From Bradyrhizobiaceae bacterium (GTDB lineage Bacteria > Pseudomonadota > Alphaproteobacteria > Rhizobiales > Xanthobacteraceae), in assembly GCA_044463945.1 (NCBI GenBank), contig JBIQLW010000019.1, positions 8,990 to 72,989 of the forward strand: a stretch of DNA of 64,000 bases. Direction: 5' to 3'. The notes under the pieces are model-generated. The model searched no databases. It was not told where the DNA came from and saw only the letters and a program-made list of their open reading frames with translations. Positions 7,940-46,301 of this stretch are shown piece by piece. The position numbers and the translations under genes were made by a program. Numbering within the stretch: position 1 is the first letter of the stretch; each line of letters starts with the position of its first letter.

Positions 7940-8082
7940 CTTAAGGGCGCGAAGTCACTGACGGCGGCCCGCGCCGGACGCGACGCGGGCCTCCCGATCC
8001 GATCGAAAGCCGCTTTCATTTCTCCAGCCGACTCGTTTCTCAAGACGCCGGCCCCGCGCGGGCCGGAACCGGATTTGCGTCG

Positions 8083-12916: not shown

Positions 12917-13657
12917 ATGGACGACGATCCGGAGGACGGCCGCCTGATGAGCGAGCGCATCGCCGCCGAGATCCGTAGCGCAGTTCTGAGCGGCGAGATG
13001 CGGCCGGGAATGCGCATCCGGCAGGAACTGCTCGCCGCCCATTTCGGCGCCAGCCGCATTCCGGTGCGCGAGGCGCTGAAGCAGCTTGAGAACGAGGGTC
13101 TGGTGGTGATGGCGCCGAACCGCGGCGCCTGGATCGCGGACGTCAATTCGGACGAATCCATCGAGATTTACAAGATCCGCGAGGCGGTGGAGCCGCTGGC
13201 CATCGGCGAAAGCGTGCCGAACCTGACCGACGAGGACATCGATACGCTCGACGCCATCGTGCGCGAACTGGAGCACGTCCCGACGCTTGAGGAATACATC
13301 CAGCTCGATCGCGAGTTTCATCTGCGCACTTATGCGGGGGCGCGGATGCCGCAGCTTCTGGCGATGGTCGAGCGATTCTGGAACAGCACGCAGCATTTTC
13401 GGCGGTTGTTCGTGAAGGAAGCCTATGCCAAGGATGGATTCCCGTTCTCCGATCCCCAGCATCTGCTGTTGATGGATGCGATCCGGGCGCGCGACGTCGA
13501 TGCGGCGCAGATATTGGTGCGTCTGCATATCCGCAGAACGCGCCTCGTCATCGAGACGACGGAGAGGGGGACCAGCCGGTCGCCGGTGGCCAGCCGCTCC
13601 GTCGTGCGGCGCACCCCGCCGGGCCCGGTTTATCGAAGGAGAGACAGTCATGAGTGA
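12917..13657 (+). CDS. GntR-family transcriptional regulator (FCD C-terminal domain)
   Basis: GASRIPVREALKQLENEGLV winged HTH followed by an FCD-like helical domain. ATG 12917 has a GGGAGGGG RBS; alternative start 12869. Confidence 0.9.
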   Translation: MDDDPEDGRLMSERIAAEIRSAVLSGEMRPGMRIRQELLAAHFGASRIPVREALKQLENEGLVVMAPNRGAWIADVNSDESIEIYKIREAVEPLAIGESVPNLTDEDIDTLDAIVRELEHVPTLEEYIQLDREFHLRTYAGARMPQLLAMVERFWNSTQHFRRLFVKEAYAKDGFPFSDPQHLLLMDAIRARDVDAAQILVRLHIRRTRLVIETTERGTSRSPVASRSVVRRTPPGPVYRRRDSHE

Positions 13658-14525
13658 TTTTCAGAAGATCGGCGTGGTCGGCGCCGGCATGATGGGCTCC
13701 GAGATTGCCCTGATGTTCGCGCTCGCCGGCTATCCGACGCTGCTCAGCGATCAGTCGCGCGAGGCGGCCGAGCGCGCGATCGAGCGCCTTCACGGCGTGC
13801 TCGACCGCGGCCTGCCCCGGCGGTTCTGGTCGGAGGAAGCGGCGGCCACCGCGCGCCGCCAGCTTGCGGTCGCCGATAGCCTCGATGCCTATGCCGACCG
13901 TGACCTGGTGATCGAAGCGGTGTTCGAGGACGAGGCGCTGAAGCGCGACGTGTTCAAACGGCTCGACGCCATCGTCGCGCCGGGGGCGGGGCTGGCGTCC
14001 AACACCTCGTCGATCTCCATCACCACGCTGAGTTCGGCGGTGGCGGAGCCGCGCCGCGCCCGCTTCATCGGCACGCATTTCTTCTCGCCGGTGTCGCGCA
14101 TGAAACTGGTGGAGGTGATCCCGGCCGCCGACACCGATCCCGCCTTCGCCGATGCGGTGAGCGACGTCATGACCGCGATCGGCAAGGCGCCGATCCGCGT
14201 CAAGGACGTCGTCGGCTTCGCCGTCAACCGGCTGCTGCACGCGCTGGTGCTCGAATCGATCCGCCTCGTCGAGGAAGGCGTGTGCTCGCCGGCGGATATC
14301 GACGCCGCCTGCAAGCTCGGCCTCGGGCATCCGATCGGCCCGTTCGAACTGATGGACAATACCCAGAACTCGCTGTCGCTGAGCGTGCACGAGATTCTTC
14401 ATCAGGCTTACGGCGAGCGCTTCCTGCCGCGCCCGCTGCTGCGCCAGATGGTCGCCGCCGGCTATAACGGCCGCAAGGCGGGGCGCGGGTGGCATCGTTA
14501 CGGCAGCGACGGCAAGAAGCAATGA
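13650..14525 (+). CDS. 3-hydroxyacyl-CoA (3-hydroxybutyryl-CoA) dehydrogenase
   Basis: IGVVGAGMMGSEIA Rossmann motif, HFFSPV, C-terminal dimerisation domain; overlaps the GntR stop by 8 nt. Confidence 0.92.
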   Translation: MSDFQKIGVVGAGMMGSEIALMFALAGYPTLLSDQSREAAERAIERLHGVLDRGLPRRFWSEEAAATARRQLAVADSLDAYADRDLVIEAVFEDEALKRDVFKRLDAIVAPGAGLASNTSSISITTLSSAVAEPRRARFIGTHFFSPVSRMKLVEVIPAADTDPAFADAVSDVMTAIGKAPIRVKDVVGFAVNRLLHALVLESIRLVEEGVCSPADIDAACKLGLGHPIGPFELMDNTQNSLSLSVHEILHQAYGERFLPRPLLRQMVAAGYNGRKAGRGWHRYGSDGKKQ

Positions 14526-14572
14526 CAGCGGCGCCTCGAGCCGGCGCGCGCAACCGATAGCGGAGCATCGAC

Positions 14573-15880
<1,308 letters not shown>

Positions 15881-16048: not shown

Positions 16049-16513
16049 TCAGCCCGCGGGGCGCGGCGTGCCGGACGCCGCGCGGGTCTGCGTCCGGATC
16101 GCCGGCCACACCGTGCGCCGCCAGGCGGACGCGCCGGCGTCCCACGCCACCACCTCGCCCCCGCGCAGCACGAACCACTGCGGCGCGCCCGGCAGCGTTC
16201 GCACCCGCTCGCGCAAGCCCGCGAGATCGGCCGGCCACAGCGGCTCCGCCAGCAGGTCGCGCAGCCGTGTCGCGATCACTTCACGATAACGCAGGCCGGA
16301 AAATTCGCGGCTCTCCACGAATGACGGCCGCTCGTCGCGCCGCCAGGCGCGGCACGGCCCGCAATCCTCCGCGCCGACATAGACGACGGTGATCGCGCCG
16401 CGCCCCGCCGCCGGCTGATGCGGCACGTCGGCGACCAGCACCCCGCAGCCGAGCGCGAGCGCAAGGGCGGCAGGCAAACGGCGCGAGAGCAGGGGACGGG
16501 CGGCGACTGACAT
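16049..16513 (-). CDS. Secreted/anchored thioredoxin-fold protein with a CGPC motif
   Basis: Signal/anchor MSVAARPLLSRRLPAALALALGCGVL, then VVYVGAEDCGPCRAW; divergent from the oxidase cluster. Confidence 0.6.
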   Translation of the reverse strand: MSVAARPLLSRRLPAALALALGCGVLVADVPHQPAAGRGAITVVYVGAEDCGPCRAWRRDERPSFVESREFSGLRYREVIATRLRDLLAEPLWPADLAGLRERVRTLPGAPQWFVLRGGEVVAWDAGASAWRRTVWPAIRTQTRAASGTPRPAG

Positions 16514-16547
16514 CCGCACAGCCTAGAGCCGCATGGCGGTGTCTCAC

Positions 16548-16561
16548 TTACCCAAAGTCAA
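16548..16561. promoter_or_regulatory. Degenerate Crp/Fnr (FixK-type) half-palindrome upstream of the oxidase cluster
   Basis: TTACC-CAAA-GTCAA: right half perfect, left half two mismatches. Centred 64 bp upstream of the ATG at 16619. Confidence 0.25.
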
Positions 16562-16618
16562 GGCCGCGCGCCGCGAACGGTGGCAGCTTCCTGTCAAAGG
16601 GACGTGAGGAGCACCGCC

Positions 16619-16798
16619 ATGTCGAAGACCGCGAAGCCGCCCGGCGAGCCAGCCGCCGCCGACGATGAGCCCATGCCGTTCATGCAGCGGGTGCTCGACG
16701 ATCCGTTCCTGCTTCTGTTCATCGGCGTCACCATTCCCACGATCCTCTATCTCGTCTGGGGCGTGATGGAGATCGCCAACGTCCCGGTCGGCAAATAG
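16619..16798 (+). CDS. Small single-TM protein, putative accessory subunit of the oxidase
   Basis: ATG 16619 with a GAGGAG RBS: MSKTAKPPGEPAAADDEPMPFMQRVLDDPFLLLFIGVTIPTILYLVWGVMEIANVPVGK. Placement resembles the small subunits of ba3/cbb3 oxidases. Confidence 0.55.
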   Translation: MSKTAKPPGEPAAADDEPMPFMQRVLDDPFLLLFIGVTIPTILYLVWGVMEIANVPVGK

Positions 16799-16810
16799 GA
16801 GAGCGATCCG

Positions 16811-17362
16811 ATGGCCATTACCTCTCCCGAACGCCGCGTCTGGTGGAACGAGCCGGTCGAGCGCGTCGAACTGATCTGGATCGCCGTGGCGCTGCTGTGG
16901 GGTCTGTTCATGTTCTTCTTCATGATCGCCTGGCACTTCATCGGCGGTCAGAATCTCGCAACCGAAGCCTACAAGGTGGTGCCGAGCGCCTATCAGGAGA
17001 AGGTCGACGCCTTCGCCGAGAAGTACCAGGTCGGCGACGAATCCGGCACGCCGATCGTGCGGCCGCCGGCCGGCGAAGATATCTATCTGCTCGGGCGGCT
17101 GTGGCAGTGGTGGCCGGTGCTGCAACTGGAAAAGGGCCAGAGCTACCGCCTGCATCTGTCGTCGGTCGACTGGCAGCACGGCTTCTCGCTGCAACCCACC
17201 AACATCAACATCCAGGTTCATCCCGGCTACGAGCACGTCATCGTCCTGACGCCGACCGAAGCCGGCGAATTCGGCATCATCTGCAACGAGTTCTGCGGCA
17301 TCGGCCATCACACCATGACCGGCAAGATCATCGTCGTCGATAGCAAGGCGGAGGCGAAGTAA
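16811..17362 (+). CDS. Heme-copper oxidase subunit II with CuA centre (single-TM, B-family-like)
   Basis: CuA ligands WQHGFSL ... CNEFCGIGHHTM; one N-terminal TM; 183 aa. Confidence 0.9.
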   Translation: MAITSPERRVWWNEPVERVELIWIAVALLWGLFMFFFMIAWHFIGGQNLATEAYKVVPSAYQEKVDAFAEKYQVGDESGTPIVRPPAGEDIYLLGRLWQWWPVLQLEKGQSYRLHLSSVDWQHGFSLQPTNINIQVHPGYEHVIVLTPTEAGEFGIICNEFCGIGHHTMTGKIIVVDSKAEAK

Positions 17363-17363
17363 C

Positions 17364-19088
17364 ATGACCACCTTCGAGGGCGTTGTGGCGGCGACGCGCG
17401 AGCGGGCCGCGAATTTCCGCACCTGCCAGTTCACCGGCCTCAAGGTCGATATCGCCGCGCAGCGGCTGATTATCGCCAACGCGGTCGCGGCCGTGGTGTT
17501 TCTCGCCGTCGGCGGCCTGATGGGATTGATGGTGGCGCTGACGCGCTGGCCGGCGGTGCATCTTCTGCCCGCCGAGTGGTTCTATCTGATCCTCACCGCG
17601 CACGGCGCCAACGTGCTGTTGTTCTGGATCATCTTCTTCGAGATCGCGGTGCTCTATTTCGCCTCCGCGGTACTGCTCAATTCGCGCATCGCGGCGCCGA
17701 AAACCGGCTGGCTCGGCTTCGTGCTGATGGTGGCCGGCGCCATCATCACCAACATCGCCGTGCTGCAAGGCGAATCGACGGTGATGTTCACCTCCTATCC
17801 GCCGATGATGGCGCGGCCGCATTTCTATCTCGGCATCATCCTGTTCGCGGTCGGCGCGCTGATCGGCGTCGGGCTGTTTTTCGCGACGCTGATGATCGCC
17901 AGGGCGGAGCGTACCTACGAGGGCTCGATCCCGCTGGTCACCTTCGGCGCGCTGACGGCGGCGATCATCGCCGTGTTCACGCTGGTGTCGGGGGCGATCA
18001 TCCTGGTTCCGACCATGCTGTGGTCGATGGGGCTGATCCGCGACATCGATCCGTTGATGTACAAGCTGGTGTGGTGGGCGATGGGCCACTCCTCGCAGCA
18101 GATCAACGTCTCCGCGCACGTCTCGGTGTGGTACATGATCGGCGCGCTGGTCTTGGGAGCCAAGCCGCTGTCGGAGAAGGTCAGCCGCGGCGCGTTCTTC
18201 CTCTACATCCTGTTCCTGCAACTGGCCTCGGCGCACCATCTGCTGGCCGAGCCGGGAATCAGCGCCGAGTGGAAGATCGTCAACACCAGCTACATGATGT
18301 ATCTGGCGGTGCTCGGCTCGATGATCCACGGCCTCACGGTGCCCGGCTCGATCGAGGCAGCGCAGCGCCGCAACGGTTTCAACCGGGGCGTGTTCGAGTG
18401 GCTGCGCAAGGCGCCGTGGGGCAATCCGGCGTTCTCCGGCATGTTCCTGTCGCTGGTGATGTTCGGCTTCATCGGCGGCATCTCCGGCGTGGTGCTCGGC
18501 ACCGAGCAGCTCAACGTGCTGATGCACAACACCATCTATGTCCCCGGCCACTTCCACGGCACGGTGGTCGCCGGCACCACGCTGGCCTTCATGGCCGGCA
18601 CCTATCTGGTGCTGCCGCTGATCTTCCAGCGCGACATCATCTGGCCGGGGCTGGCGCGGATCCAGCCGTACCTGTTCGGCATCGGCGCCGCCGGCATCTC
18701 GATGTTCATGATGGGGGCGGGCACGCTCGGCGTGGCGCGGCGGCACTGGGACATCAACTTCACCGACGCGGTGATCGGCTTCCAGCATTCGCCCGGCGCG
18801 TTCCTGATGATGGGGCTGAACGGCATCAGCGCCATCCTCGCGGCGCTCGGCGGCATCCTCTACATCCTGATCGTGGTCGGCACCGCGTTGTTCGGCAAGA
18901 AGATCGTGCCGGGCCACAAGATGACCTTCCCGCTGCATTCGAGCGCCAACGTGGTGTCGAAATACGGCAGCGAAGGCACGATCAAGCTGCCCGGCACCAT
19001 CGTTCTGGTGACGATCTTCTTCCTGTCCTTCGTGCTCTATTACTTCGTCAACTGGAAGTATCTGTCCGACCTGTGGCAGTTCCGCTGA
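17364..19088 (+). CDS. Heme-copper oxidase subunit I, divergent (B-family-like); canonical cross-link Tyr position is Gln
   Basis: All six His ligands present: LTAHGANV, WWAMGHSSQQI, LASAHHLL, YVPGHFHGTV. GHSSQQ replaces GHP(E/I)VY. Confidence 0.93.
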   Translation: MTTFEGVVAATRERAANFRTCQFTGLKVDIAAQRLIIANAVAAVVFLAVGGLMGLMVALTRWPAVHLLPAEWFYLILTAHGANVLLFWIIFFEIAVLYFASAVLLNSRIAAPKTGWLGFVLMVAGAIITNIAVLQGESTVMFTSYPPMMARPHFYLGIILFAVGALIGVGLFFATLMIARAERTYEGSIPLVTFGALTAAIIAVFTLVSGAIILVPTMLWSMGLIRDIDPLMYKLVWWAMGHSSQQINVSAHVSVWYMIGALVLGAKPLSEKVSRGAFFLYILFLQLASAHHLLAEPGISAEWKIVNTSYMMYLAVLGSMIHGLTVPGSIEAAQRRNGFNRGVFEWLRKAPWGNPAFSGMFLSLVMFGFIGGISGVVLGTEQLNVLMHNTIYVPGHFHGTVVAGTTLAFMAGTYLVLPLIFQRDIIWPGLARIQPYLFGIGAAGISMFMMGAGTLGVARRHWDINFTDAVIGFQHSPGAFLMMGLNGISAILAALGGILYILIVVGTALFGKKIVPGHKMTFPLHSSANVVSKYGSEGTIKLPGTIVLVTIFFLSFVLYYFVNWKYLSDLWQFR

Positions 19089-19135
19089 GCGCGATCCGGT
19101 CATGTTGAAACCGTCGTCCCAGATGCAGCGCGCGT

Positions 19136-19172
19136 CCTCTCCCCGCCGGGGAGGGGGCCGGGGGGAGGGGGC
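19136..19172. repeat. G-run/C-run element (family E copy 2) between oxidase subunit I and ctaB::sco
   Basis: CCTCTCCCCGCCGGGGAGGGGGCCGGGGGGAGGGGGCG; four or more G-runs on the coding strand. Confidence 0.5.
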
Positions 19173-19202
19173 GCGCGCGAGCGACGAACAAGGAGGCGAG
19201 AC

Positions 19203-20861
19203 ATGCGCGCCGTGCTGACCACGACCGTATCGCTGCTCAAGCTGCGCATCGGCATCGCGATCGCCGCCAGCGCGGTCGCGGGCGCGGCGGCGGCGCAGGG
19301 CGCGGCGCGCGAGGCGTGGGAGGTGCTGGCGCTGGCGCTCGCGGTGCTCGGCGCCTCGGGCGCGGCCGGCGCGTTCAACCACTATTACGAACGCGACCTC
19401 GACCGCCACATGCGGCGCACCGAGAGCCGGCCGTTCGCCAGCGGGATGTTGCGGCCGGGCGCGGGGTGGCTCACGGCCTTCGCCGCGCTCGCGGTGCTGT
19501 CGCTGGCGCTGGCCTATGTCGTCGGCGGCGCGGTCAGCGCCGTCTACGTGCTGCTCGGCGGCCTGACCTATGGCGTGGTCTACACCGTGTGGCTCAAGCG
19601 CCGCACGCCGATGAACATCGTGGTCGGCGGGTTGTCCGGCAGCTTCGCCGTGCTGGCCGGCGCGGCGGCGGTCGATCCGATGCCGCAGACGGTGCCGGTG
19701 CTGCTGGCGCTGGTGCTGTTCCTGTGGACGCCGCCGCATTTCTGGGCGCTCGCCGCGGCGCGCCGCGACGACTACGCCAATGCCGGCTTCCCGATGCTGC
19801 CGGTGGTCGCGCCTGAGCGGGTGTGGACCACGGCGATCCTCGCCCACACCGCGGCGCTGACGGCGCTGTCGCTGGTGCCGCTATGGTTCGGCATGGGGCT
19901 GATCTACGGCATCGGTGCAGGCGCTGGCGGCGCGGTGTTCGTGTGGCGAAGCTGGCGGCTTTACCGCGCGCCGAGTCGCGCCACCGCGATGGCGACCTTC
20001 GGCGCGTCGCTGATCCACCTCACATTGCTGACGCTGGCGGTGGTGCTGGACGCGGCGGTGGTGACCAAGGCGTCGGCCACGCCGGCCGGCGGAGCGCTCG
20101 ATCCGCGCGTCGTGCTGGAGCGAAGCGAGGCGGCGATCGGCACGACGCTCGGCGATTACACGCTGCGCGATCCGCAGGGCCGCCGCATCGCGCTGGCCGA
20201 TTATCGCGGCCGCCCGCTGGTCATCAGTCTGGTCTACTCTAGTTGCAGCACCACCTGCCCGGTGACGACGCAGCATCTCATCGACGCGGTGGCGCAGGCG
20301 CGCCAGAGTCTCGGGGCCGACCGCTTCGCGGTGCTGACCATCGGCTTCGACGCGCGCCGCGACAGCCCGCAGCGCATGGCGGCGTTCGCCGGCCGGCAGG
20401 GCATTCCGGCCAGCGGCTGGGACGTCGCCTCCGGCGACGAGGCGACGCTGGCGGCGCTGATGCGGGATCTCGGCTTCGGCTATCAGGCGGTCGCCGGCGG
20501 TTTCGATCACATCGCCCAGACCACGATCATCGACGCCGGAGGGCGAGTCTACCGTCAGGTCTACGGCGACGACTTCCCGCTGCCGGTGTTCATCGAGCCC
20601 TTGAAGGAAGCAGTGTTCGGCATCACCACCCGCGCGCTGACCGTCTCGGCGCTGATCGACCGCTTAAGTTTCCTCTGCACCGTCTACGATCCCGGACAGG
20701 GCCGCTACCGCACCAGCTACGCCATCGCGCTCGGCATCGGCATCGGCGCCCTGTCGCTGCTGATCGCCGGCATCGTCTTCGTCCGCGCCTGGATGCGCAA
20801 CCGCCGGCTGGAAGCGTTGCGCCGGGTTCCGCCGCCGCGGCTGCTCGGACGACAGACATGA
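19203..20861 (+). CDS. ctaB: Fusion protein: heme O synthase (protoheme IX farnesyltransferase, UbiA family) + SCO1/SenC copper chaperone domain + C-terminal TM
   Basis: FNHYYERDLDRHMRRTESRPFASG (CtaB/CyoE motif) and multiple TMs. Then RPLVISLVYSSCSTTCPVTTQHL (CxxxC) ... GGFDHIAQTTIID (Sco His), then TM AIALGIGIGALSLLIAGIVFV. Confidence 0.9.
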   Translation: MRAVLTTTVSLLKLRIGIAIAASAVAGAAAAQGAAREAWEVLALALAVLGASGAAGAFNHYYERDLDRHMRRTESRPFASGMLRPGAGWLTAFAALAVLSLALAYVVGGAVSAVYVLLGGLTYGVVYTVWLKRRTPMNIVVGGLSGSFAVLAGAAAVDPMPQTVPVLLALVLFLWTPPHFWALAAARRDDYANAGFPMLPVVAPERVWTTAILAHTAALTALSLVPLWFGMGLIYGIGAGAGGAVFVWRSWRLYRAPSRATAMATFGASLIHLTLLTLAVVLDAAVVTKASATPAGGALDPRVVLERSEAAIGTTLGDYTLRDPQGRRIALADYRGRPLVISLVYSSCSTTCPVTTQHLIDAVAQARQSLGADRFAVLTIGFDARRDSPQRMAAFAGRQGIPASGWDVASGDEATLAALMRDLGFGYQAVAGGFDHIAQTTIIDAGGRVYRQVYGDDFPLPVFIEPLKEAVFGITTRALTVSALIDRLSFLCTVYDPGQGRYRTSYAIALGIGIGALSLLIAGIVFVRAWMRNRRLEALRRVPPPRLLGRQT

Positions 20862-22426
20862 TCGCCCTGGTGCGCCGGGGCATCGCGCGCGGATTCGACG
20901 CCGCCGAGCGCGGCCTCAACCGTCTCGCCGGTCCGGCGCTCAACCCGCTGGCGCAACTCGGCGCGCTCGGCTTCTTCCTGTTCTGGATCGTCGCGGTCAG
21001 CGGCATCTACCTGTTCATGCTGTTCGACACCGGCGTCGAGAACGCCTACGCGTCGGTCGAGTGGTACTCGACGCGCCACGCCTGGCACGCCGGCGTGATG
21101 CGCAGCTTCCACCGCTACGCCTCCGACATGATGGTCGTGGTGATGGCGCTGCATCTCTTGCGGGAGTTCGCGCGCGACCGCTATCGCGGGGCCCGCTGGT
21201 TCTCGTGGTTCACCGGCGTGCCGGTGATCTGGTTCCTCTACATGTCGGGCATCACTGGCTACTGGCTGGTGTGGGACCAGTTGGCGCAATACATCGCCAC
21301 CACCTCGACCGAACTGCTCGACTGGCTGCCGATCTTCGGCGAGCCGATCGCCCGCAATTTCCTGGCGCCGTCGAGCCTGTCGAACCGCTTCTTCACGCTG
21401 CTGGTGTTTTTGCACATCGCGGTGCCGCTGGTGCTGCTGTTTACGCTGTGGATCCATATCCAGCGCATCACCCGGCCCAAGGTGAACCCGCCGCGCACGC
21501 TCGCGGCGCTGACCATGCTGGCGCTGCTCGCGGTGTCGATCGTCAAGCCGGCGCTGAGTCAGGGCGCGGCGGACCTTGCGAAAGTGCCGAGCCCGGTCGG
21601 GCTCGACTGGTTCTATCTGCCGCTCTATCCGCTGGCCGACGATTCGCCCGGCGCGCTGTGGGGGCTGCTCGCGGCGGCGACCGTGATGCTGGCGGCGATG
21701 CCGTGGCTGCCGCCGCTGCGGCGGATGAAGCCGGCGACCGTCGATCTGGATCATTGCAACGGCTGCGGCCGCTGCGTCGAGGACTGCCCCTACGAGGCTC
21801 TGCAACTGGTGCCGCGCACCGACGACCTGCCCTATGAGCTTGAGGTCGCGGTCAATGCCGACAAATGCGTGAGCTGCGGCATCTGCACCGGCTCGTGCCC
21901 GTCCTCGACGCCGTTCCGCAGCGTCGGCCCGCTCGATACCGGCATCGACCTGCCGGACGTCACCTTCGCCTCGATGGGCGAGCGGCTCCATGAACTGGCC
22001 GCGCGGGACGCGCCGTCGCCGCGTTTGCTGGTGATCGGCTGCTGGCACGGCGCGGCCGGGGCGCGCGACGAAAGCACCCTGTCGCTGCCGTGCGTATCCG
22101 CCGCCCCGCCGTCGCTGATCGATTACGCGCTGAGCCGCGGTCTGGCCGATGGCGTCGTCATCGCCGGCTGCTCCGAGAGCGCCTGCTACAACCGGCTCGG
22201 CGTCGCGTGGATGCAGCAGCGCATCGCCGGCGAGCGCGACCCGTATCTGCGGGCGCGGGTGCCGCGCGATCGTATCCTCGAGGTGTGGGCCTCGCCGACC
22301 GAGGGCGCGCGGCTGACGCGCGAGATCGACGCCTTCAGAGCGCGGCTCGCCGCGCTTGCCGAGGAGCCGCCGCCACCACAGCAGGTTACCGGGACGCCGG
22401 CGAGCGTCAGGGAGGCGGCATCGTGA
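20858..22426 (+). CDS. Fusion protein: diheme cytochrome b (6 TM) + 2x[4Fe-4S] ferredoxin + MvhD/FlpD-like hydrogenase iron-sulfur domain
   Basis: ATGA overlap with the ctaB::sco stop. Two H-x13-H pairs (FHRYASDMMVVVMALH; LHIAVPLVLLFTLWIH). CNGCGRCVEDCP and CVSCGICTGSCP. C-terminal LLVIGCWHG...LPCVSAAPPSLIDYALSRGLADGVVIAGCSESACYN. Confidence 0.85.
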   Translation: MIALVRRGIARGFDAAERGLNRLAGPALNPLAQLGALGFFLFWIVAVSGIYLFMLFDTGVENAYASVEWYSTRHAWHAGVMRSFHRYASDMMVVVMALHLLREFARDRYRGARWFSWFTGVPVIWFLYMSGITGYWLVWDQLAQYIATTSTELLDWLPIFGEPIARNFLAPSSLSNRFFTLLVFLHIAVPLVLLFTLWIHIQRITRPKVNPPRTLAALTMLALLAVSIVKPALSQGAADLAKVPSPVGLDWFYLPLYPLADDSPGALWGLLAAATVMLAAMPWLPPLRRMKPATVDLDHCNGCGRCVEDCPYEALQLVPRTDDLPYELEVAVNADKCVSCGICTGSCPSSTPFRSVGPLDTGIDLPDVTFASMGERLHELAARDAPSPRLLVIGCWHGAAGARDESTLSLPCVSAAPPSLIDYALSRGLADGVVIAGCSESACYNRLGVAWMQQRIAGERDPYLRARVPRDRILEVWASPTEGARLTREIDAFRARLAALAEEPPPPQQVTGTPASVREAAS

Positions 22427-22935
22427 GCGCGCCGGTGTCAGTGCCGCGGCTGGCCGGGCTGTTCGTCGTGCTGGCGGCGGTGACGGCGTTCGCCGCCGCC
22501 TTCTCCAATGCGCCGGCCTACCGGCAGATTCCCGCCGATACCGGCGTCATCAAGTTCAGCTTCAGCCACAGCGCCGACCGCGCGCGGGAGTGCCGCCGCC
22601 GCACCCCGGAGGAGCTGGCGAAGCTGCCGCCCAACATGCGCCGGCCGCTCGATTGCCCGCGTACCCGGCGCGGCATTTTCGCCGAGCTTGCGATCGACGA
22701 CGTCGTGGTGTTCAGCGCGGAATTGCCGCCGTCCGGCTTCGCCAAGGACGGCCCCTCGCAGATTTATCGCCGCTTCACGGTGGCGGCCGGCTCCCACACC
22801 GTGGCGGCGCGCTTGCGCGATACGCCGCGCGAGAGCGGCTTCGACCATGAGCGCATCGAGACGGTGACGGTCAAGCCGGGGCAGAGCCTGGCGCTCGATT
22901 TCCGCCCCGAGCACGGCGGCTTCATCTGGCGTTAA
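22423..22935 (+). CDS. Membrane-anchored hypothetical protein, last gene of the oxidase cluster
   Basis: GTG 22423 overlapping the previous stop, GGAGG RBS, N-terminal anchor LAGLFVVLAAVTAFAAAF, no recognisable domain. Confidence 0.55.
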   Translation: MSAPVSVPRLAGLFVVLAAVTAFAAAFSNAPAYRQIPADTGVIKFSFSHSADRARECRRRTPEELAKLPPNMRRPLDCPRTRRGIFAELAIDDVVVFSAELPPSGFAKDGPSQIYRRFTVAAGSHTVAARLRDTPRESGFDHERIETVTVKPGQSLALDFRPEHGGFIWR

Positions 22936-22970
22936 CGGGAGAACCACGGGAGGCAGCGCGTTCGCCTTAT

Positions 22971-22984
22971 TTGACATGGCGCAA
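22971..22984. promoter_or_regulatory. Crp/Fnr (FixK-type) box upstream of the cluster-linked Crp/Fnr regulator
   Basis: TTGAC-ATGG-CGCAA (one mismatch to TTGAY-N4-RTCAA), centred 67 bp upstream of ATG 23045. Confidence 0.35.
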
Positions 22985-23044
22985 TGCCGGCGCGGCGAGG
23001 CCGTGCTTGGCTGGCGCATTGCTGCTGCCTGCCGGGAGCCCGTC

Positions 23045-23827
23045 ATGACCCCCGCCGACTGGTCGATCGTCAACCGCGTTCCCGTGTTCCGCTCGATGGG
23101 CGAGGCGCTGAGCCATCGCATCGTCCGCAACTATGCGCGCGGCGAGTTGCTGTTTCAGCAGGGTGATCCGGCGACCTGCTGCTTCCTGGTGCTCGACGGC
23201 TGGGTCAAGCTCTACCGGCAGACGGCGGACGGCGACGAGGTGGTGGTGTCGCTGTTCACCGCCGGCGAAAGCTTCGCCGAAGCGATGATGTTTCGCGGCG
23301 GCCGCTACCCTGCGACGGCGGAGGCGGTGACCTCGGTGCGGCTCCTGCACATCGACGGCCAGTTGCTGCGCGACGCCATCCTGCGCGATCCGCAGCTTTC
23401 GTTCGACATGCTGGCGGCATCGTCGCTGCACCTGCGGCGGCTGGTCGAGCAGGTCGAGCAGTTGAAAGCGCAATCGGCGCCCAAGCGCATCGCCAGCTTC
23501 CTGCTCTCGCTCACCGCCGCCCGTCGCGGCCCGGCGCGGATCGAACTGCCTTACGAGAAGCTGCTGATCGCCAACCGCCTCGGCATGAAGCCCGAGAGCT
23601 TTTCGCGGGCGCTGCGGCAGCTTCGCGCCGTCGGCGTCTTCGTCGAGCGCGAGTTCGTTCGCATCGATGACGTCGGCCGCCTATCCGGCTTTGTCGAAGG
23701 CGGCGAGCCGGACGGCGTGCCGTGCCCGATGATCCGCACCCCGGCGCAATGCGGCAGCTTCGGCGCCGGCTGCATCGAGGCCGCCTATCGCGCGCCGCTG
23801 CGCGCCCCGCGCCGCTCGCGCGCGTGA
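23045..23827 (+). CDS. Crp/Fnr-family transcriptional regulator with a Cys-containing C-terminal extension
   Basis: cNMP-binding-like beta-roll (LFQQGDPATCCFLVLDGWVKLYR), HTH LIANRLGMKPESFSRALRQL. Tail ...GVPCPMIRTPAQCGSFGAGCIEAAY. Start 23045 preferred over 22976, which overlaps the box. Confidence 0.88.
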   Translation: MTPADWSIVNRVPVFRSMGEALSHRIVRNYARGELLFQQGDPATCCFLVLDGWVKLYRQTADGDEVVVSLFTAGESFAEAMMFRGGRYPATAEAVTSVRLLHIDGQLLRDAILRDPQLSFDMLAASSLHLRRLVEQVEQLKAQSAPKRIASFLLSLTAARRGPARIELPYEKLLIANRLGMKPESFSRALRQLRAVGVFVEREFVRIDDVGRLSGFVEGGEPDGVPCPMIRTPAQCGSFGAGCIEAAYRAPLRAPRRSRA

Positions 23828-24014: not shown

Positions 24015-24638
24015 TCAGGCTTGATCCTTCAGCGCGCCGCCGCGCAGCGCCAGCCGGATCAGTTCGGACAGGCTGTGCGCCTGCATCTTGGTCATGACGT
24101 TGGCGCGATAGACCTCGATGGTCCGCGGGCTGATGTCGTGCTCGCGCGCGATCTGCTTGTTGGAGAGGCCGGCGATCAACCCGTCCATCACCTGCCGCTC
24201 GCGCGGGCTGAGGCTGGCCAGCCGCGCGGCGATGTCCTGCGCGGCCGCCTCGCTGCGCAGCCGGTCGTCGGCCTGCCTGAGCGCGGTGTCGATGGTCCCG
24301 ATCAGGCGCTCGTCCTCGAACGGCTTTTCGACGAAATCGAACGCGCCGAGCTTCATCGCCTCGACCGCCAGCGGAATGTCGCCGTGGCCGGTCATGATGA
24401 TGACCGGAAGCGTCGAGGCTTCGTTGCGAAGGCGGCGCAGCAGCGTCATGCCGTCGATGCCCGGCATCCGCACGTCCGACACCACGCAGCCGAAGGGCAG
24501 CGTCGCATGAACGTCGAGGAAGCTCGCGGCGCTGTCGAACAGCGCGACGTCGAAGCCCGCCGCGCCGAGCAGGAAGTCGAGCGAATCCCGCATCGCGGGA
24601 TCGTCGTCGATGACGTAGACGCTGGCGTTACGCGACAT
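24015..24638 (-). CDS. fixJ: Two-component response regulator FixJ
   Basis: [14 protein letters not shown]...[10 protein letters not shown] receiver plus LuxR-type [25 protein letters not shown]; overlaps the fixL stop. Confidence 0.95.
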
Positions 24639-26187
24639 CCGGCAGGTCCTCGTCCGGCGCGGCCGGCAGCGTCAGGTGAAACGTCGCGCCGCCGGCGGCG
24701 TTGTTCTCTCCCCACATGCGGCCGCCGTGCGCTTCCACGATCGACCGGCTGATTGAAAGCCCGACCCCCATGCCTGTGTCCTTGGTGGTGAAGAAAGTCT
24801 GAAACAGGTTGGCGAGCGCCACCTCGCTGAACCCGTGGCCGGTGTCCATCACCGACAGCGCGACCGTGTCGTCGGCGGCGCGCGCGCTGGACACGATCAG
24901 TTCGCGCCGCGCTACGCCCGCCATCGCCTCCAGCGCGTTGCGGAACAGGTTGACCAGAACCTGCTGGATCTGCACCCGGTCGACCAGCACGCGGTCACAC
25001 GTCGGATCGAGTTCGGAGCGCAGCATCACGTTCTGCTCGCGCGCGCCGGACAACCCCAGCGCGCCGGCTTCCTCGACCAGCCTGGCGAGGCTTTCGACGC
25101 GCTTTTCGGACTCGCGCCGGCTGACGAAATCCCGCAGGCGGCGAATGATCTGGCCGGCGCGCAGCGCCTGCTCGGCGGCGCGATCCAGCGCCATCCCGAC
25201 GCGGGCGGCATTGGGATCGGGGCTTGTCTCAAGCAGGCGGCGCGATCCCTTCATGTAGTTGCTGATGGCGGCGAGCGGCTGGTTGAGTTCGTGGGCCAGC
25301 GCCGAGGCCATCTCGCCCATGGCGCTCAGCCGCGAGACGTGGATCAGCTCCGATTGCAGTTCCTGAAGTTTTGCCTGGGTCTGCTGGTGCTCGGTGAGGT
25401 CGCGCACGAAGCCGGTGAAATGCCGCTCGCCGCCGGCGGTCATCTCGCCGACCGACAGGTGCATGGGAAAGGTCGAGCCGTCGCGGCGCTTTCCAGTGAC
25501 GATGCGGCCGATGCCGATGATGTGGCGTTCGCCGGTGGATTTGTAGCGCTCAAGGTAGCCGTCGTGCCGGCTGCGGTCCGGCTCCGGCATGAGAATGCTG
25601 ACGTTCTGCCCGACCGCCTCGGCTTCGGAGAAGCCGAACAGCCGCTGGGCGGCGGAGCTGAAGCGCTGGATGATGCCGTGGTCGTCGATCACGATCATCG
25701 CGTCCGGAACGGTATCGAGGATCGAATGGAGATGGCCCTCGCGTGCGCGCAACGCCTCCTCCAACTGCTTCTGATCGTCGATATCGAGCACCGCGCCGCA
25801 TACGCGGACGGGCGTGCCGTCCTCGTTCCTGACCAGGCCGCCGCGGGCGCGCACCCAGCGGCTTTTTCCGGACGTCTTGCGCAGCCGGTACTGAAGATCG
25901 AATCTAGCGCCTGTCTCGACGGTCCGTTGCAGCGCGGCCCGCGTGCGCTCCTGATCGTCGGGGTCGAGCCGCGACAGGAAAAGATCCAACGTCACCGCGG
26001 CGTCGGGCGCGACGCCGAACAACTGCCGCGCCGCGTTGGACCAGAACAACTCCCCGGTGGCGAGCGCAAGGTCCCAGATGCCGATGCCCGATCCGTCGAT
26101 GCCGCGTTGCAGATCGCGGTCGAGAAACAGCCCGCTCAACGCGGTTGAGCCGTCGTCGATCTCGGCGGTGGTGTTTCGGTGAGGCAT
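24628..26187 (-). CDS. fixL: Oxygen-sensing heme-PAS histidine kinase FixL
   Basis: Near-identical blocks to Bradyrhizobium FixL as remembered: [42 protein letters not shown] (heme His), [35 protein letters not shown]-box. Start MPHRN at 26187. Confidence 0.95.
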
Positions 26188-26326
26188 CGCGTCATGGGTC
26201 CGCAGGCTTCGAAGACACATTCTCACTTGCCCGTCGCGGTCAGCATATCGCCGGAGGGGCGGGCGGACCAGAGCGGCAGCGGGGGACGATCGGTCGCGGG
26301 CGAGGGGCCGCCGTTGCCATCCCGCG

Positions 26327-26770
26327 TCAGGCGGTCTGGAGATGGCCGCGCGCCCATTCGACGATCTGATGGACGTTCATCGCGCCGGAGACGCGGTCTT
26401 GCTCGCGGCCGTCGCGAAACAGGATCATGGTCGGGATACCGCGAATGCCGAGCCGCGCCGCGACATCGGGCTCGGCGTCGGAGTTGAGCTTGATGAGCCG
26501 CATCTCGGGTTCGAGCTGCACCGCCGCGGCCGCGTAGGCCGGCGCCATCATCCGGCACGGCCCGCACCACGGCGCCCAGACATCGACCAGCACCGGAACG
26601 CCGCTGCGCGCGATCTGCCGCGCATACATCGCGGCGTCGGCATCGACCGGATGGCCGTCGAACAGCGCCGCCTTGCAGACGCCGCAGCGCGCGGCGCTGG
26701 GGTCGCGGCCGCCGGCCACCCGGTTCACCGCCGCGCAATGCGGGCAGACGATGTTGCGATCTGCGGTCAT
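26327..26770 (-). CDS. trxC: Thioredoxin 2 (TrxC-type, N-terminal zinc finger)
   Basis: [10 protein letters not shown]...CGVCKAAL zinc-finger motif and WAPWCGPCR active site. Confidence 0.9.
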
Positions 26771-26852
26771 GTCGTCCTTCCTTGTCGTTGCCGGGACATC
26801 AGGGCGCTCGCCAGCACATGGTTCGCCGGGCGCGCCGTTCAACGCCGGGGGT

Positions 26853-27185
26853 TCATTTCCTTGGCTTCCCGCGCGACGGTTTGCGGCCGCCGGCCGTGCA
26901 GAACGCCGCGTGCAGCGCGCCGACGATGGTCAGGATCTCCGGCCGGGTGATGGAATAATACACCGTAGTGCCCTCGCGGCGGGCCTCGACCAGCCCGTCC
27001 GAACGCAGCCGCATCAGTTGCTGCGACATCGGCACCTGCTCGATGTCGAGCTGCTGGCGCAGTTCGGCCACCGACTTCTCGCCGTCCACCAGCGCGCACA
27101 GCACCAGAAGGCGCTGCGGGTGGGACAGGCTGCGCATCAGCGTCGCGGCCGACTCGGCGGCCGGAATCATTTCTCTTACATTCAT
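26853..27185 (-). CDS. ArsR/SmtB-family regulator of the BigR/SqrR (persulfide-sensing) type
   Basis: LSHPQRLLVLCAL HTH region; two Cys (LVLCAL and AAFCTAG) spaced as in BigR/SqrR; divergent from sqr. Confidence 0.85.
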   Translation of the reverse strand: MNVREMIPAAESAATLMRSLSHPQRLLVLCALVDGEKSVAELRQQLDIEQVPMSQQLMRLRSDGLVEARREGTTVYYSITRPEILTIVGALHAAFCTAGGRKPSRGKPRK

Positions 27186-27195
27186 AGTCTTGAAT
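27180..27195. promoter_or_regulatory. ATTC-N8-GAAT inverted repeat (SqrR/BigR-type operator candidate) in the AT-rich divergent promoter
   Basis: ATTCATAGTCTTGAAT overlapping the regulator start codon, followed by a second imperfect ATTT-N9-GAAT (27194-27210). Confidence 0.4.
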
Positions 27196-27352
27196 TTATA
27201 ATATTTGAATGCTACGTACAAGCCCGGAACCTTGAGAAGGCTCAAGCGGTCCGCGGCGAGCGGTCCCTACAGTCATAAGGTCCCGGTTTGGAGAAGCAAG
27301 ACGCCAACGCCGCCGGCGGACACCGGCGGCAACCTCGAACGGAGGGAATGCC

Positions 27353-37680: not shown

Positions 37681-38367
37681 TTACGCATTCATGACGCGCA
37701 GGCGCTGGCGGTTGCGCAGCATGATCTGGCGCGCGCCGGAGAGATCGAGAATTTTCTCGTCGCGCAATTCCGAGAGCGTGCGCGACACGGTTTCCAGCGT
37801 CAGCCCGAGATAGTCGCCGATGTCGCGACGGCACATCGGCAGCGCCACCATGCCGGCGGCCGACAGGCGGTTGTCCATTTCCAGCAGGAACGCGGCGACG
37901 CGCTCCCGCGCGGTCTTGCGCCCGAGCAGCAGCATGTGGTTCTCGGCGTGGCGGAGATCGTCGGCGGTGATGGTCCAGAGCTGCCGGGTGAGGCCGACGT
38001 CGGTCGCGGCCGCCTGTTCCAGGTTCTGCCGCTTCACCAGGCGGACGGTGGTCCTGACGATCGCCTCGGCGGTCAGGCGGTGGTTCGATCCGGACTCCAG
38101 CCCGAACACGTCGCCCGGCAGGTGGAACGCGCCGATCTGGCGGCGGCCGTCGGACAACAGCTTGTAGGTGCGCACCGCGCCGCGCAGCACCTGATAGACG
38201 TAGCGGGAGGGCTCGTCCTCGCCGTAGATTTCCGCGTCGCGCTGATAGGTGTATTCGGTGGCCGCGAGGCAGGCGCGGCTCACCACCGGGGCGAACTTGT
38301 CGTCGATGTCGGGCAGAAATACGGCCGGGCGGGAGGCGTTGTGAACGGCGATCGCGGGCGAAAGCAT
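37681..38367 (-). CDS. fixK: Crp/Fnr-family regulator FixK (FixK2-like, no Fnr Cys cluster)
   Basis: YVYQVLRGAVRTYKLLSDGRRQIGAFHLPGDVFGLE, HTH MCRRDIGDYLGLTLETVSRTLSEL. ATG 38367 preceded by a GAGGAG RBS. Confidence 0.9.
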   Translation of the reverse strand: MLSPAIAVHNASRPAVFLPDIDDKFAPVVSRACLAATEYTYQRDAEIYGEDEPSRYVYQVLRGAVRTYKLLSDGRRQIGAFHLPGDVFGLESGSNHRLTAEAIVRTTVRLVKRQNLEQAAATDVGLTRQLWTITADDLRHAENHMLLLGRKTARERVAAFLLEMDNRLSAAGMVALPMCRRDIGDYLGLTLETVSRTLSELRDEKILDLSGARQIMLRNRQRLRVMNA

Positions 38368-38435
38368 GGACCATCTCCTCATCGGGGTGGTCCTTGGTAC
38401 GCGATACCGGCGTCGTTCAATATTGCGGCCGATAT

Positions 38436-38499: not shown

Positions 38500-38886
38500 C
38501 TAGCGGCCGGCCAGTTGCCGCACGCAGGCGACCAGGCTGTCCTCAAGATGCGGCTTCAGCAGGATATGGTCGATCCCGGCGGCGGCCGCCCGCGCTTCGA
38601 GGGAGCGGTCGGGATATCCGGTGATCAGGATCACCGGCGCGGTCATGTTGCGCTGGCGCAGCCGCGCCGCCACTTCGAGCCCGTTGATCCGCGGCATCTT
38701 GTAGTCGACCACGAGGCAATCGACCTCAACCGGGTCGATCGTCTCCAACAGCGCCGCGGCGTCGCCGAAGGTGCGGACGGTGAAGCCGTGCGTCTCCAGC
38801 AGGAACCGCAACGACTGGAGGACATCCGCATCGTCGTCGAGAACGCAGATCCGATAGTCCCTGAGCCCGGCGTCTTCATCTGGCAT
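38500..38886 (-). CDS. Stand-alone CheY-like receiver domain protein upstream of fixK
   Basis: ICVLDDDADVLQSL...LVVDYKMPRINGLEV...ILITGY; no output domain; ATG 38886. Confidence 0.85.
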   Translation of the reverse strand: MPDEDAGLRDYRICVLDDDADVLQSLRFLLETHGFTVRTFGDAAALLETIDPVEVDCLVVDYKMPRINGLEVAARLRQRNMTAPVILITGYPDRSLEARAAAAGIDHILLKPHLEDSLVACVRQLAGR

Positions 38887-38938
38887 CGCGCGTCCCGTTT
38901 GGCGGCGGCTGACCATAGGAGCGCGGCGGCCGGATGCC

Positions 38939-38952
38939 TTGATGTACGTCAA
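38939..38952. promoter_or_regulatory. Perfect FixK/Fnr-type box in the divergent receiver/usp intergenic region
   Basis: TTGAT-GTAC-GTCAA, centred 68 bp upstream of the usp ATG (39014) and 59 bp upstream of the receiver ATG (38886). Confidence 0.65.
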
Positions 38953-39013
38953 CATGCGGCGGACAATGCCGTGACACATACGGTCCGAAGCCCGAACTGC
39001 GGAGAGTTAGATC

Positions 39014-44862: not shown

Positions 44863-44911
44863 GAGCATGATCTTGTCCGAAAACCGGTTCCCACTTTTCG
44901 GGATCATGCTC
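44863..44911. repeat. REP family D copy 1 (49-bp palindrome)
   Basis: GAGCATGATCTTGTCCGAAAACCGGTTCCCACTTTTCGGGATCATGCTC; abuts the hemN stop codon; second copy at 56981-57029. Confidence 0.65.
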
Positions 44912-46260: not shown

Positions 46261-46301
46261 GCCATCGTCTCCCCCGCGGCGACGGCCGCGGACGGGGCGC
46301 A

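Follow-up and report, generated by a model that had tools for sequence, protein, structure and literature searches.

Nitric oxide (NO) reductases of the eNOR family were demonstrated as such only in 2024, may supply a large share of environmental N2O, and are still labelled 'cbb3-type' or 'ba3' oxidases in genome annotation. The activity that characterizes the family is NO reduction without O2 reduction, with haem As in both haem sites, and its diagnostic sequence feature is a conserved glutamine at the position of the cross-linked tyrosine (PMC8756737, following Hemp & Gennis 2008). The equivalent of Ser309 is retained in the eNORs, bNORs and B1 oxidases, but not in the sNORs (Murali et al. 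2024, PMC11214002). The latter share the active site of bNOR, with the tyrosine exchanged for asparagine (PMC11214002, PMC3475470); they have lost the Ser309 equivalent and harbor a conserved glutamate elsewhere (PMC11214002). The eNOR of Rhodothermus marinus reduces NO and gave no O2 reduction with any donor tried, His/Lys ligation of the low-spin haem has been reported for some eNORs, and 547 GTDB genomes have been counted for the family (PMC11214002). Here we describe a gene cluster within a 64,000-nt stretch of Bradyrhizobiaceae DNA, referred to below as the window, that is best explained as a self-contained eNOR cassette equipped with maturation genes and a co-inherited pair of redox genes. 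We assign this overall reading a probability of about 0.72.

The accessory redox genes of such operons have received little attention, and the only discussion of them that our literature search found is a preprint on Ferrigenium straubiae. It lists eNOR II, eNOR I, heme o synthase, sco1 and an 'eNOR scaffold protein' of unassigned function as the common operon members. Two cytochrome b/Fe-S genes are termed 'rather unusual' and are proposed as markers of Ferrigenium-dominated communities. One of these carries FAD/NADH domains, for which the authors propose a quinol:NAD+ oxidoreductase, and the cytochrome b proteins are expressed together with the eNOR under denitrifying conditions (bioRxiv 10.64898/2026.01.22.701106).

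The cluster had first been read from its letters alone as a self-contained respiratory module of six tightly packed same-strand genes followed by a Crp/Fnr gene, and the open reading frame map reproduces the positions given for them (Table 1). The module does come with genes of its own for cofactor assembly, for a redox fusion protein and for regulation. Its catalytic component, subunit I, matches the Pfam family COX1 at 1e-62, and its best solved relative is the ba3 oxidase of Thermus thermophilus (PDB 1EHK, 1XME; 1e-42, ~27% identity). All six histidine ligands of the haems and the non-haem metal are kept, in that H80, H242, H291, H292, H396 and H398 align with H72, H233, H282, H283, H384 and H386 of ba3. 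The protein had been described as Tyr-less, and this holds on alignment: where ba3 reads GHPIVYFW, subunit I reads GHSSQQINV, which places Q246 at the position of Tyr237. The cross-linked tyrosine is missing from subunit I in the window and in all 89 loci of relatives with which it was compared (numbered from L001), 80 of which came from a genome scan with a QQ-containing pattern. In the K-channel, which was checked in part, S319 corresponds to S309 of ba3 and the T315 equivalent is retained, while T312 is replaced by histidine.

The other subunits are in keeping with a CuA-containing enzyme. Subunit II consists of one transmembrane helix and a cupredoxin domain, to which the COX2/cupredoxin and CoxB models give weak matches, and the CuA site proposed by the sequence-only reading is found in the translation as C-N-E-F-C-G-I-G-H-H-T-M, a complete C-x3-C-x3-H-x2-M motif. 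Homologues of the 59-residue transmembrane protein were placed by tblastn at the 5' side of subunit II in most of the 89 loci, with 33-91% identity. By analogy with subunit IIa of ba3 or the small peptide of the Bacillus qCuANOR (PMC3475470), this protein is likely to be a third subunit of the enzyme.

Subunit I is 45-46% identical to eNOR-type proteins of a Thermus plasmid and of Thermomicrobium roseum, as found by tblastn of the plasmids, and the same motif together with 45-57% identity is shared across the Rhodothermales metagenome-assembled genomes (MAGs), the Thermus plasmid and T. roseum; a haloarchaeal member has 39%. In a search of 1.84 billion cluster representatives the relatives of subunit I form a compact family, and the closest full-length representatives outside its own lineage are archaeal. 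The haloarchaeal neighbour at 39% identity carries the same QQ motif, and the Asgard and Thermoproteota neighbours, at 38-44%, keep the tyrosine within a QY motif. Four such Tyr-keeping proteins (P0248, P0253, P0254 and P0263; 35-45% identical, GH..QYVN), two of which are named as Asgard (Hodarchaeales) and Thermoproteota MAG proteins, make up a sister group that may be an oxidase lineage ancestral to the QQ-type enzymes.

On account of the glutamine at the tyrosine position, the retained Ser309 equivalent and the plasmid relatives, subunit I is filed under eNOR, and it appears highly probable that the region is an eNOR-type NO reductase cassette. The earlier suggestion of a kinship with the norSY-senC-orf1 genes of nitrifiers, that is with sNOR, is not upheld. 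The two systems do have in common a B-family-derived, CuA-containing and Tyr-less enzyme with a linked senC/sco gene. However, glutamine is present and the serine is kept here, whereas sNOR has asparagine and has lost the Ser309 equivalent; the nearest cluster representatives outside the lineage are archaeal, and among named bacterial relatives the eNOR-type proteins of Thermus and Thermomicrobium are the nearest; and the fourth gene in Bacillus, and reportedly in nitrifiers too, encodes a six-transmembrane membrane protein, with no cytochrome b/Fe-S fusion. The active-site and channel residues, together with the identity of the nearest relatives, speak so strongly against sNOR that we regard this identity as hardly credible. 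The predicted assignment moves accordingly from sNOR-like to eNOR, the distinction from sNOR being drawn from literature descriptions of the latter.

To establish which genes travel with this enzyme, one genome per GTDB species was scanned with an alignment of QQ-type subunit I proteins as the query. At least 584 species genomes carry a QQ-type subunit I, a number of the same order as the 547 eNOR genomes of Murali et al., which counts towards the eNOR identity. The best 80 loci belong to Myxococcota, Verrucomicrobiota, Planctomycetota, Gemmatimonadota, Bacteroidota/Rhodothermales, Spirochaetota, Nitrospirota, Methylomirabilota and the Alpha-, Beta- and Gammaproteobacteria. Cytochrome b and Fe-S/MvhD parts adjoin the enzyme in every one of the 66 loci with enough flanking sequence, as judged by tblastn and hidden Markov models, and in 65 of them they form a single open reading frame. 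The 14 of 80 loci in which the fusion is absent are all on contigs that end too near the enzyme genes. A homologue of the 170-residue protein lies directly 3' of the fusion and on the same strand wherever there is room for it (62 of 62 loci). The cytochrome b fusion and the 170-residue protein thus accompany the enzyme in at least eight bacterial phyla, and the cytochrome b gene is the rule in eNOR operons and not the exception. The redox fusion and the orphan gene had been regarded as extras of this locus; they are instead strictly conserved companions of the enzyme clade.

The placement of the pair does vary. In 17 loci the fusion is found 5' of the enzyme genes on the opposite strand (L048, L051, L053, L056, L058, L060, L062, L064, L065, L068, L069, L072, L077, L080, L082, L083 and L089). 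These are mostly from Gemmatimonadota, the others being single Myxococcota, Spirochaetales and unclassified MAGs. The gene for the 170-residue protein trails the fusion in these loci too where the contig is long enough, so that the two genes behave as a unit, and they look like an independent transcription unit. The sole locus in which the cytochrome b and Fe-S/MvhD parts are not in one frame is on a Woeseiaceae chromosome (L054, ~13387-15000), where the gene could be genuinely split or the break could stem from a frameshift or an error in sequencing.

A comparison of gene neighbourhoods in Bradyrhizobium and other relatives, as the sequence-only reading had suggested, recovers the same gene set in Bradyrhizobium arachidis, Prosthecomicrobium, Rhodoblastus, MAGs and a Defluviimonas plasmid. 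The shared set comprises a divergently transcribed gene for a CxxC protein, the small transmembrane protein, subunit II, subunit I, ctaB, sco, the cytochrome b fusion and the ~170-residue protein. In one of the two closest MAG loci (L003, the other being L004) the small transmembrane protein and ctaB::sco are uncalled in the annotation, and tblastn detects both. The B. arachidis-type loci L001 and L002 (15561-21722 and 4658-7105, respectively) continue after the cassette with genes for a hemerythrin, a cytochrome c, ApbE, a NosR-like protein, the cd1 nitrite reductase nirS and a uroporphyrin methylase, and have a DUF1858 gene upstream, joined in L001 by an IS66 element. This stretch appears to be a nirS-eNOR denitrification island. 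Across the 89 loci, cd1 nirS lies within 10 kb in 7, and NirK-like multicopper genes lie within 10 kb in 7 others.

More distant relatives are found on the denitrification plasmids of T. thermophilus, where 45%-identical copies stand directly beside nirS and a nirK-like gene. In T. thermophilus TTHNAR1 plasmid 4 (L008), subunit I (7983-9668) has lysine for the second histidine of HFH (HFKGTV) at the low-spin haem, which is the His/Lys ligation known from some eNORs and speaks for the eNOR identity. Its gene is flanked by the nirS/nirK-like genes on one side and by genes for an Rrf2 regulator and a DUF542 (ScdA-like) protein on the other; this locus is devoid of ctaB, sco and the cytochrome b fusion. 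On the T. roseum megaplasmid (L009, 9817-11619), a 600-residue 'heme o synthase' encoded downstream of the eNOR-type genes proves to be a CtaA::CtaB fusion (COX15-CtaA plus UbiA).

The genomic setting also bears on whether the enzyme might be a high-affinity, ba3-like terminal oxidase for microoxic growth and a member of the FixK regulon. Such a role would agree with the adjacent fixLJ genes, with a surrounding cluster of FixK-type boxes that includes hemN, with the lack of denitrification genes in the window, and with the O2-binding bacteriohemerythrin that usually follows the cassette in proteobacterial relatives (it is missing from the window and its closest MAG relatives); the same dispute exists over the sNOR of Nitrosomonas europaea. 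Against this, the redox-active tyrosine required for four-electron O2 reduction is replaced by glutamine in all members examined, the characterized eNOR is inert towards O2, and relatives are often found beside nirS or nirK-like genes. An oxidase is therefore considered very unlikely, and the eNOR assignment is preferred.

The cytochrome b::Fe-S::MvhD protein, whose composite nature had been recognized at the outset, matches Cytochrome_B (ExtP/b6-like), a short ExtQ/subunit-IV-like stretch, two Fer4 domains and FlpD/MvhD in Pfam and NCBIfam, and its Fe-S and MvhD part also matches the C-terminus of HdrA2. Sequence matches to the fusion were found in the PDB. Its AlphaFold 2 (AF2) model has a mean predicted confidence (pLDDT) of 72, with higher values in the soluble part. 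In this model bc1 cytochrome b is matched by residues 1-290 (helices A-F), and MvhD by the C-terminal part (5odc_D, TMt 0.68). Among 73 orthologues the four histidines expected to bind two b haems (H85, H99, H186 and H200) and the eight cysteines of two [4Fe-4S] clusters are 100% conserved, whereas in the MvhD domain three of four cysteines are ~87% conserved and C443 70%. A D250-x-x-Y253 motif is conserved on the periplasmic-side ef loop, at what is probably the equivalent of the PEWY position of bc complexes, and D250 itself is 97% conserved. As the transmembrane helices number six, an even count, the Fe-S and MvhD domains are placed on the cytoplasmic side. This architecture is shared by at least 5,439 database clusters, all with generic annotation.

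The 170-residue protein had been called an orphan without a recognizable domain, and no Pfam or NCBIfam model does match it. Its AF2 model (pLDDT 90.7) is composed of a transmembrane helix at residues 7-28 followed by a beta-sandwich, for which Foldseek finds no specific neighbour in the PDB. The residues H49, C57, M72, C78 and H125 are 82-90% conserved across phyla. From the overlap of the reading frames, the gene is predicted to be translationally coupled to that of the fusion. The charges flanking the helix and the lack of a twin-arginine motif suggest Sec insertion, and the soluble domain is probably periplasmic. An Fe-S cluster would then be less plausible than a disulfide or a copper site, and the missing twin-arginine motif makes a [2Fe-2S] role like that of Rieske proteins unlikely. 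A Cox11/CtaG chaperone (PF04442) was considered and rejected, as hhalign gives a probability of 0.2% against Bradyrhizobium Cox11 and there is no Pfam match. Cox11 is not among the 50 listed Foldseek matches of the model.

In the mechanism that we favour, electrons would enter the enzyme at the periplasmic CuA, pass to the low-spin haem and then to the haem/non-haem-metal site, where two NO are reduced to N2O with protons drawn from the cytoplasm via a K-channel-like path. The fusion and its partner would act as a dedicated, bc1-independent redox module for the eNOR, and this is the most speculative step. Quinol could be oxidized at a Qo-like pocket on the periplasmic side, lined by the conserved Asp250 and Tyr253 of the ef loop, and the anchored periplasmic 170-residue protein may help to pass electrons towards CuA. 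The two b haems and the Fe-S chain would link the pocket to the cytoplasm, serving to drain off the second electron or to admit electrons from a cytoplasmic reductant. A quinol-linked module of this type, with the anchored protein on the CuA side, is adopted as a tentative working hypothesis.

A different direction of flow is conceivable, in which the pair forms a transmembrane wire of the NOX or MsrQ kind. NAD(P)H or ferredoxin in the cytoplasm would feed it by way of a flavoprotein, and the electrons would pass outward to the periplasmic CuA side. NO could then be detoxified independently of the quinone pool and bc1. In Hdr/Mvh complexes electrons travel between the hydrogenase and the flavoprotein HdrA by way of MvhD, and this relay role, the fold match of the fusion to MvhD, the cytoplasmic location of the Fe-S and MvhD domains after an even number of helices, and the F. 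straubiae operon paralogue with FAD- and NADH-binding domains are all agreeable to such a wire. Yet the cytochrome b is of the bc1/b6 type with a conserved ef-loop Asp and Tyr, which points to a quinone site, and there is no flavoprotein partner among the cassette genes. The wire is judged unlikely.

The pair could instead serve in maturation, delivering or withdrawing electrons for the modification of haem o to an a-type haem or for insertion of the non-haem metal or copper, with the beta-sandwich protein as a metal chaperone. Its genes do follow ctaB and sco, conserved His, Cys and Met residues are present in the partner, whose location is probably periplasmic, and the 'scaffold protein' of F. 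straubiae is a common operon member without an assigned function. An O2-independent replacement of heme a synthase by the fusion was considered, and CtaA was sought by tblastn with the T. roseum CtaA domain, a search of low sensitivity. Only two other loci gave a CtaA, and both have the fusion as well; the two show no anticorrelation, and with at least two loci carrying both, the fusion is no simple replacement for CtaA. The partner, moreover, has no profile relation to Cox11 and no structural match to known chaperones, and the co-expression of the cytochrome b proteins with the eNOR in F. straubiae fits a stoichiometric partner, while being compatible with a maturation factor as well. A role in maturation is held to be quite improbable.

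Finally, the fusion, its partner and the eNOR might make up a supercomplex that works as a quinol:NO oxidoreductase without a Rieske protein and sends the two quinol electrons along separate paths, an arrangement that seems very unlikely. One electron would go to the very high-potential CuA/NO site and the other through the b haems and Fe-S clusters to a low-potential acceptor in the cytoplasm, such as ferredoxin or NAD(P)+. Electron splitting is ranked the least likely of the readings of the accessory pair. If true, it would couple NO reduction to the production of a strong reductant, representing a novel form of bc-type energy coupling in hundreds of species from many phyla.

Several points weigh against the overall reading of an eNOR cassette with a quinol-linked pair. 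No nir, nor or nos gene is found within the 64-kb window, so the respiratory role of the enzyme here rests on its relatives. In the comparison R. marinus is represented by Rhodothermales MAGs, and the purified R. marinus and M. magnetotacticum enzymes enter it by description only. The survey comprised the best 80 of at least 584 matches, ranked by similarity to one clade, and its search pattern contained QQ; the most distant eNOR-type loci, those of Thermus and T. roseum, do not have the cytochrome b pair. Among the cassette genes there is no equivalent of Rieske or cytochrome c1, and Qo-type quinol oxidation remains an assumption for this reason. The sequence gives no direction of electron flow through the fusion. 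The putative operon box, described below, deviates from the FNR consensus with TTA in place of TTG.

Regulation by low O2 or NO, which had been proposed for the cluster, is plausible given the conserved boxes, a DNR-like regulator, the adjacent fixLJ genes and the cluster of FNR-type boxes around them. The two Crp/Fnr-type boxes do lie at nearly equal distances from the first codon of the operon and that of the regulator gene, as had been pointed out. Upstream of the operon, CTTAnCCnnnGTCAAGG is invariant in the window, the two MAGs and two Bradyrhizobium genomes, the remainder of the intergenic region having diverged. The window has 10 occurrences of TTG-N8-CAA where 5.9 are expected, so the chance argument is weak, and footprinting is the stronger support for these putative boxes. 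In L003 and L004 the regulator box is kept in the form TTGACGTGGCGCAA, and Bradyrhizobium has TTGATCAAGGTCAA, with the consensus TTGAT-N4-GTCAA, 5' of the orthologous regulator. An alternative start of the regulator at ATG 22976 was discarded: this codon is inside the box and is abolished in L003 and L004 by an A-to-G change, which leaves ATG 23045 as the start codon.

The regulator is built of cNMP_binding and HTH_Crp_2 domains, with a recognition helix of the E--SR form readable as PESFSR in the translation. Its matches to solved structures are 3FX3 (1e-54), DNR of Pseudomonas aeruginosa (3DKW, 1e-26), FNR (~1e-12) and FixK2 (5e-10), and its best NCBIfam model is FtrB, below the cutoff of that model. 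This suggests a regulator of the DNR/NnrR/FtrB type, for which NO sensing is proposed by analogy. An orthologue is linked to the cassette in L001-L005 and L052. The protein extends for ~45 residues past its helix-turn-helix (window 23700-23827), and this C-terminal extension has three cysteines (PCPMIRTPAQCGSFGAGC).

The fixLJ genes downstream on the other strand, also part of the sequence-only reading, both score above their equivalog cutoffs, FixL with a PAS-PAS-HisKA-HATPase and FixJ with a REC-LuxR domain order. Beyond them, consensus FNR/FixK boxes (TTGA-N6-TCAA) are clustered in 25000-47000, at 27232, 37562, 38939, 40916 and 46329. Their neighbours are an ArsR-like/SQR-like pair, phaC, a FixK-like gene (37681-38382), a FixT-like receiver made of a single domain (38500-38979), Usp and hemN (44911-46302), and the window has the look of a regulon island of FixLJ-FixK. 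Directly adjoining fixL is a gene for a protein of the thioredoxin-2 type with a zinc ribbon at its N-terminus (26327-26842, minus strand), and an ArsR/HxlR-type regulator gene (26853-27245) comes next. In the FixLJ-FixK2-NnrR system of Bradyrhizobium and the ANR-DNR system of Pseudomonas, an O2-responsive regulator controls an NO-responsive Crp/Fnr protein that in turn controls nor genes. The most economical model for the present locus, and one that we hold to be moderately probable, is a cascade from FixLJ through FixK and the DNR/NnrR-like protein to the eNOR. FixLJ and FixK would sense low O2 and activate the linked regulator via the TTGAC-N4-CGCAA box, and the regulator, with NO as the probable signal, would act on the operon via the conserved TTAnC-N4-GTCAA box.

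The assembly genes show how the cassette has been remodelled within its lineage. The CtaB::SCO fusion was predicted correctly, in that its first half matches heme o synthase (TIGR01473) with 249.5 bits against a cutoff of 210.3 and its second half matches SCO1-SenC at 1e-12. The SCO part possesses CxxxC and a histidine, and a C-terminal transmembrane helix comes last. The two genes are fused only in the window, L003 and L004, and are separate and overlapping in Bradyrhizobium, Prosthecomicrobium, Rhodoblastus and Defluviimonas; the fusion is thus real and confined to the sublineage of the window and the two MAGs. The C-terminus of UbiA-type proteins lies outside the membrane, where SCO must act, and the fusion would therefore make topological sense. 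No ctaA gene is found among the cassette genes, which include ctaB only.

The divergent CxxC protein, which the sequence-only reading had left outside its interval, has a hydrophobic N-terminus that could be a signal or an anchor. It contains an invariant YVGAxDCxPC in six orthologues, all encoded at the same divergent position, and has no Pfam or NCBIfam match. Conservation of the gene at this position is restricted to relatives within the Hyphomicrobiales. The gene is part of the transferable unit, and its product is probably a TlpA-like periplasmic reductant for the cysteines of SCO and CuA.

The repeat-filled spacer after subunit I that had been reported is real and holds a G+C-rich hairpin. 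L004 has a larger, nested hairpin in the same place with the related core CCCCGCCGGGGAG (z = -7.4), and Bradyrhizobium has no hairpin and a gap of 30 nt. The hairpin is lineage-specific and is probably an mRNA-stabilizing or REP-like (repetitive extragenic palindromic) element. It was rejected as an intrinsic terminator, as there is no T-tract and a terminator scan found nothing between the genes, and as a dispersed repeat, as the motif occurs once in the window.

The idea that the cluster is horizontally portable stands, on the grounds that identity to the two MAGs stops at the cassette edges, that a plasmid copy exists and that the same set recurs across phyla. In blastn against L003 and L004 only window positions 16095-23780 align, with 84-90% identity, and both flanks are unrelated. 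The unit, ~7.7 kb in length, hence extends from the CxxC gene, inside which the similarity to the MAGs starts, through the regulator and excludes fixLJ, neither gene of which is common to L003 and L004. The fixLJ genes are genomic context, probably at the top of the regulatory cascade, and lie outside the transferable unit. A complete copy on a plasmid of Defluviimonas (Paracoccaceae), which is without the divergent CxxC gene, has a subunit I that is 76% identical, and subunit I is 98% identical to Xanthobacteraceae MAG proteins and ~82% identical to those of several Bradyrhizobium species. The base composition of the window shows no anomaly marking a recent transfer. The region looks like a complete, horizontally portable eNOR gene cassette.

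Table 1. Features of the eNOR cassette and its immediate surroundings, in window coordinates.
Feature	Position	Strand	Remarks
Divergent CxxC thioredoxin-like protein, 156 aa	16049-16519	-	Outside the interval of the sequence-only reading
Operon box, TTACCCAAAGTCAA	16548-16561		Centre -64.5 from ATG 16619
Small single-transmembrane protein, 59 aa	16619-16798	+	From the open reading frame map; matches no family
Subunit II, CuA	16811-17362	+	12-nt gap after small transmembrane protein gene
Subunit I, catalytic	17364-19088	+	1-nt gap after subunit II
Spacer, 114 nt	19089-19202		Between subunit I and CtaB::SCO genes
Hairpin	19128-19178	+	~21 bp, G+C-rich, -62.5 kcal/mol, z = -2.9
CtaB::SCO fusion	19203-20861	+	
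Cytochrome b::2[4Fe-4S]::MvhD fusion	20858-22426	+	ATGA overlap with ctaB::sco
170-aa membrane-anchored protein	22423-22935	+	GTGA overlap with cytochrome b fusion
Regulator box, TTGACATGGCGCAA	22971-22984		Centre -67.5 from ATG 23045
Crp/Fnr regulator, 260 aa	23045-23827	+	Start at ATG 23045
fixJ	24015-24638	-	NCBIfam 333 bits, cutoff 255
fixL	24628-26226	-	NCBIfam 900 bits, cutoff 850

The type of enzyme described here is already known; what is new is the strict co-inheritance of the cytochrome b::Fe-S::MvhD protein and its partner. The presence of an eNOR in soil bacteria of the Xanthobacteraceae/Bradyrhizobium type, and on a plasmid, alters which organisms count as NO reducers. Of wider interest is a cytochrome b-ferredoxin-MvhD fusion that, with its anchored protein, is co-inherited with the enzyme in every complete locus examined, and which provides a concrete candidate for the electron supply, maturation or energy coupling of eNOR. 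The literature on the family has left the electron supply open or has treated the cytochrome b genes as an oddity of one lineage.

In comparison with known systems, the regulatory arrangement mirrors the FixLJ-FixK2-NnrR and ANR-DNR cascades in having an FNR-type box 5' of a second Crp/Fnr regulator, but the cascade predicted here would end at an eNOR operon, whose box reads TTA where the others read TTG. The ba3 oxidase has in common with the present enzyme the six histidine ligands, a CuA subunit and a small extra transmembrane subunit; it is, in contrast, an O2 reductase of ~27% identity, with Tyr237 where there is Gln here and Thr312 where there is His. The sNOR of ammonia oxidizers is also Tyr-less, CuA-containing, B-family-derived and linked to SCO/SenC, but according to the literature it differs in its Asn at the tyrosine position, the loss of Ser309, a different fourth gene and its placement in a separate clade.

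The fusion resembles NarI/NarH, HdrE/HdrD and QmoC, in which a dihaem transmembrane cytochrome b is wired to cytoplasmic [4Fe-4S] clusters, and it resembles the cytochrome b of bc1 and b6f in the fold of its membrane domain, including the ef loop. It differs from the former in being a single polypeptide of the bc1/b6 type rather than the NarI/HdrE type, with an MvhD end, and from the bc complexes in having no Rieske/c1 partner and being paired instead with an anchored beta-sandwich protein.

The closest likeness is to the eNOR family itself, as represented by R. marinus and the 'cytochrome a1-like' protein of M. magnetotacticum, with which the locus shares a B-family origin, CuA, glutamine for tyrosine, a K-channel-type serine, a linked heme o synthase, and relatives beside nir genes. 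Unlike the described eNORs, the window has ctaB fused to sco and no ctaA in the cassette; the CtaA::CtaB protein of T. roseum is a different fusion of assembly genes from CtaB::SCO. Published main-text descriptions of eNOR do not class the cytochrome b/Fe-S pair as a core component. The F. straubiae operon matches the cassette in eNOR II and I, heme o synthase, sco1, an uncharacterized protein and a cytochrome b with an Fe-S domain. In contrast to that operon, the window has one cytochrome b gene, which ends in MvhD, and none with FAD/NADH domains, and such a cytochrome b gene is found here in every evaluable locus, across at least eight phyla.

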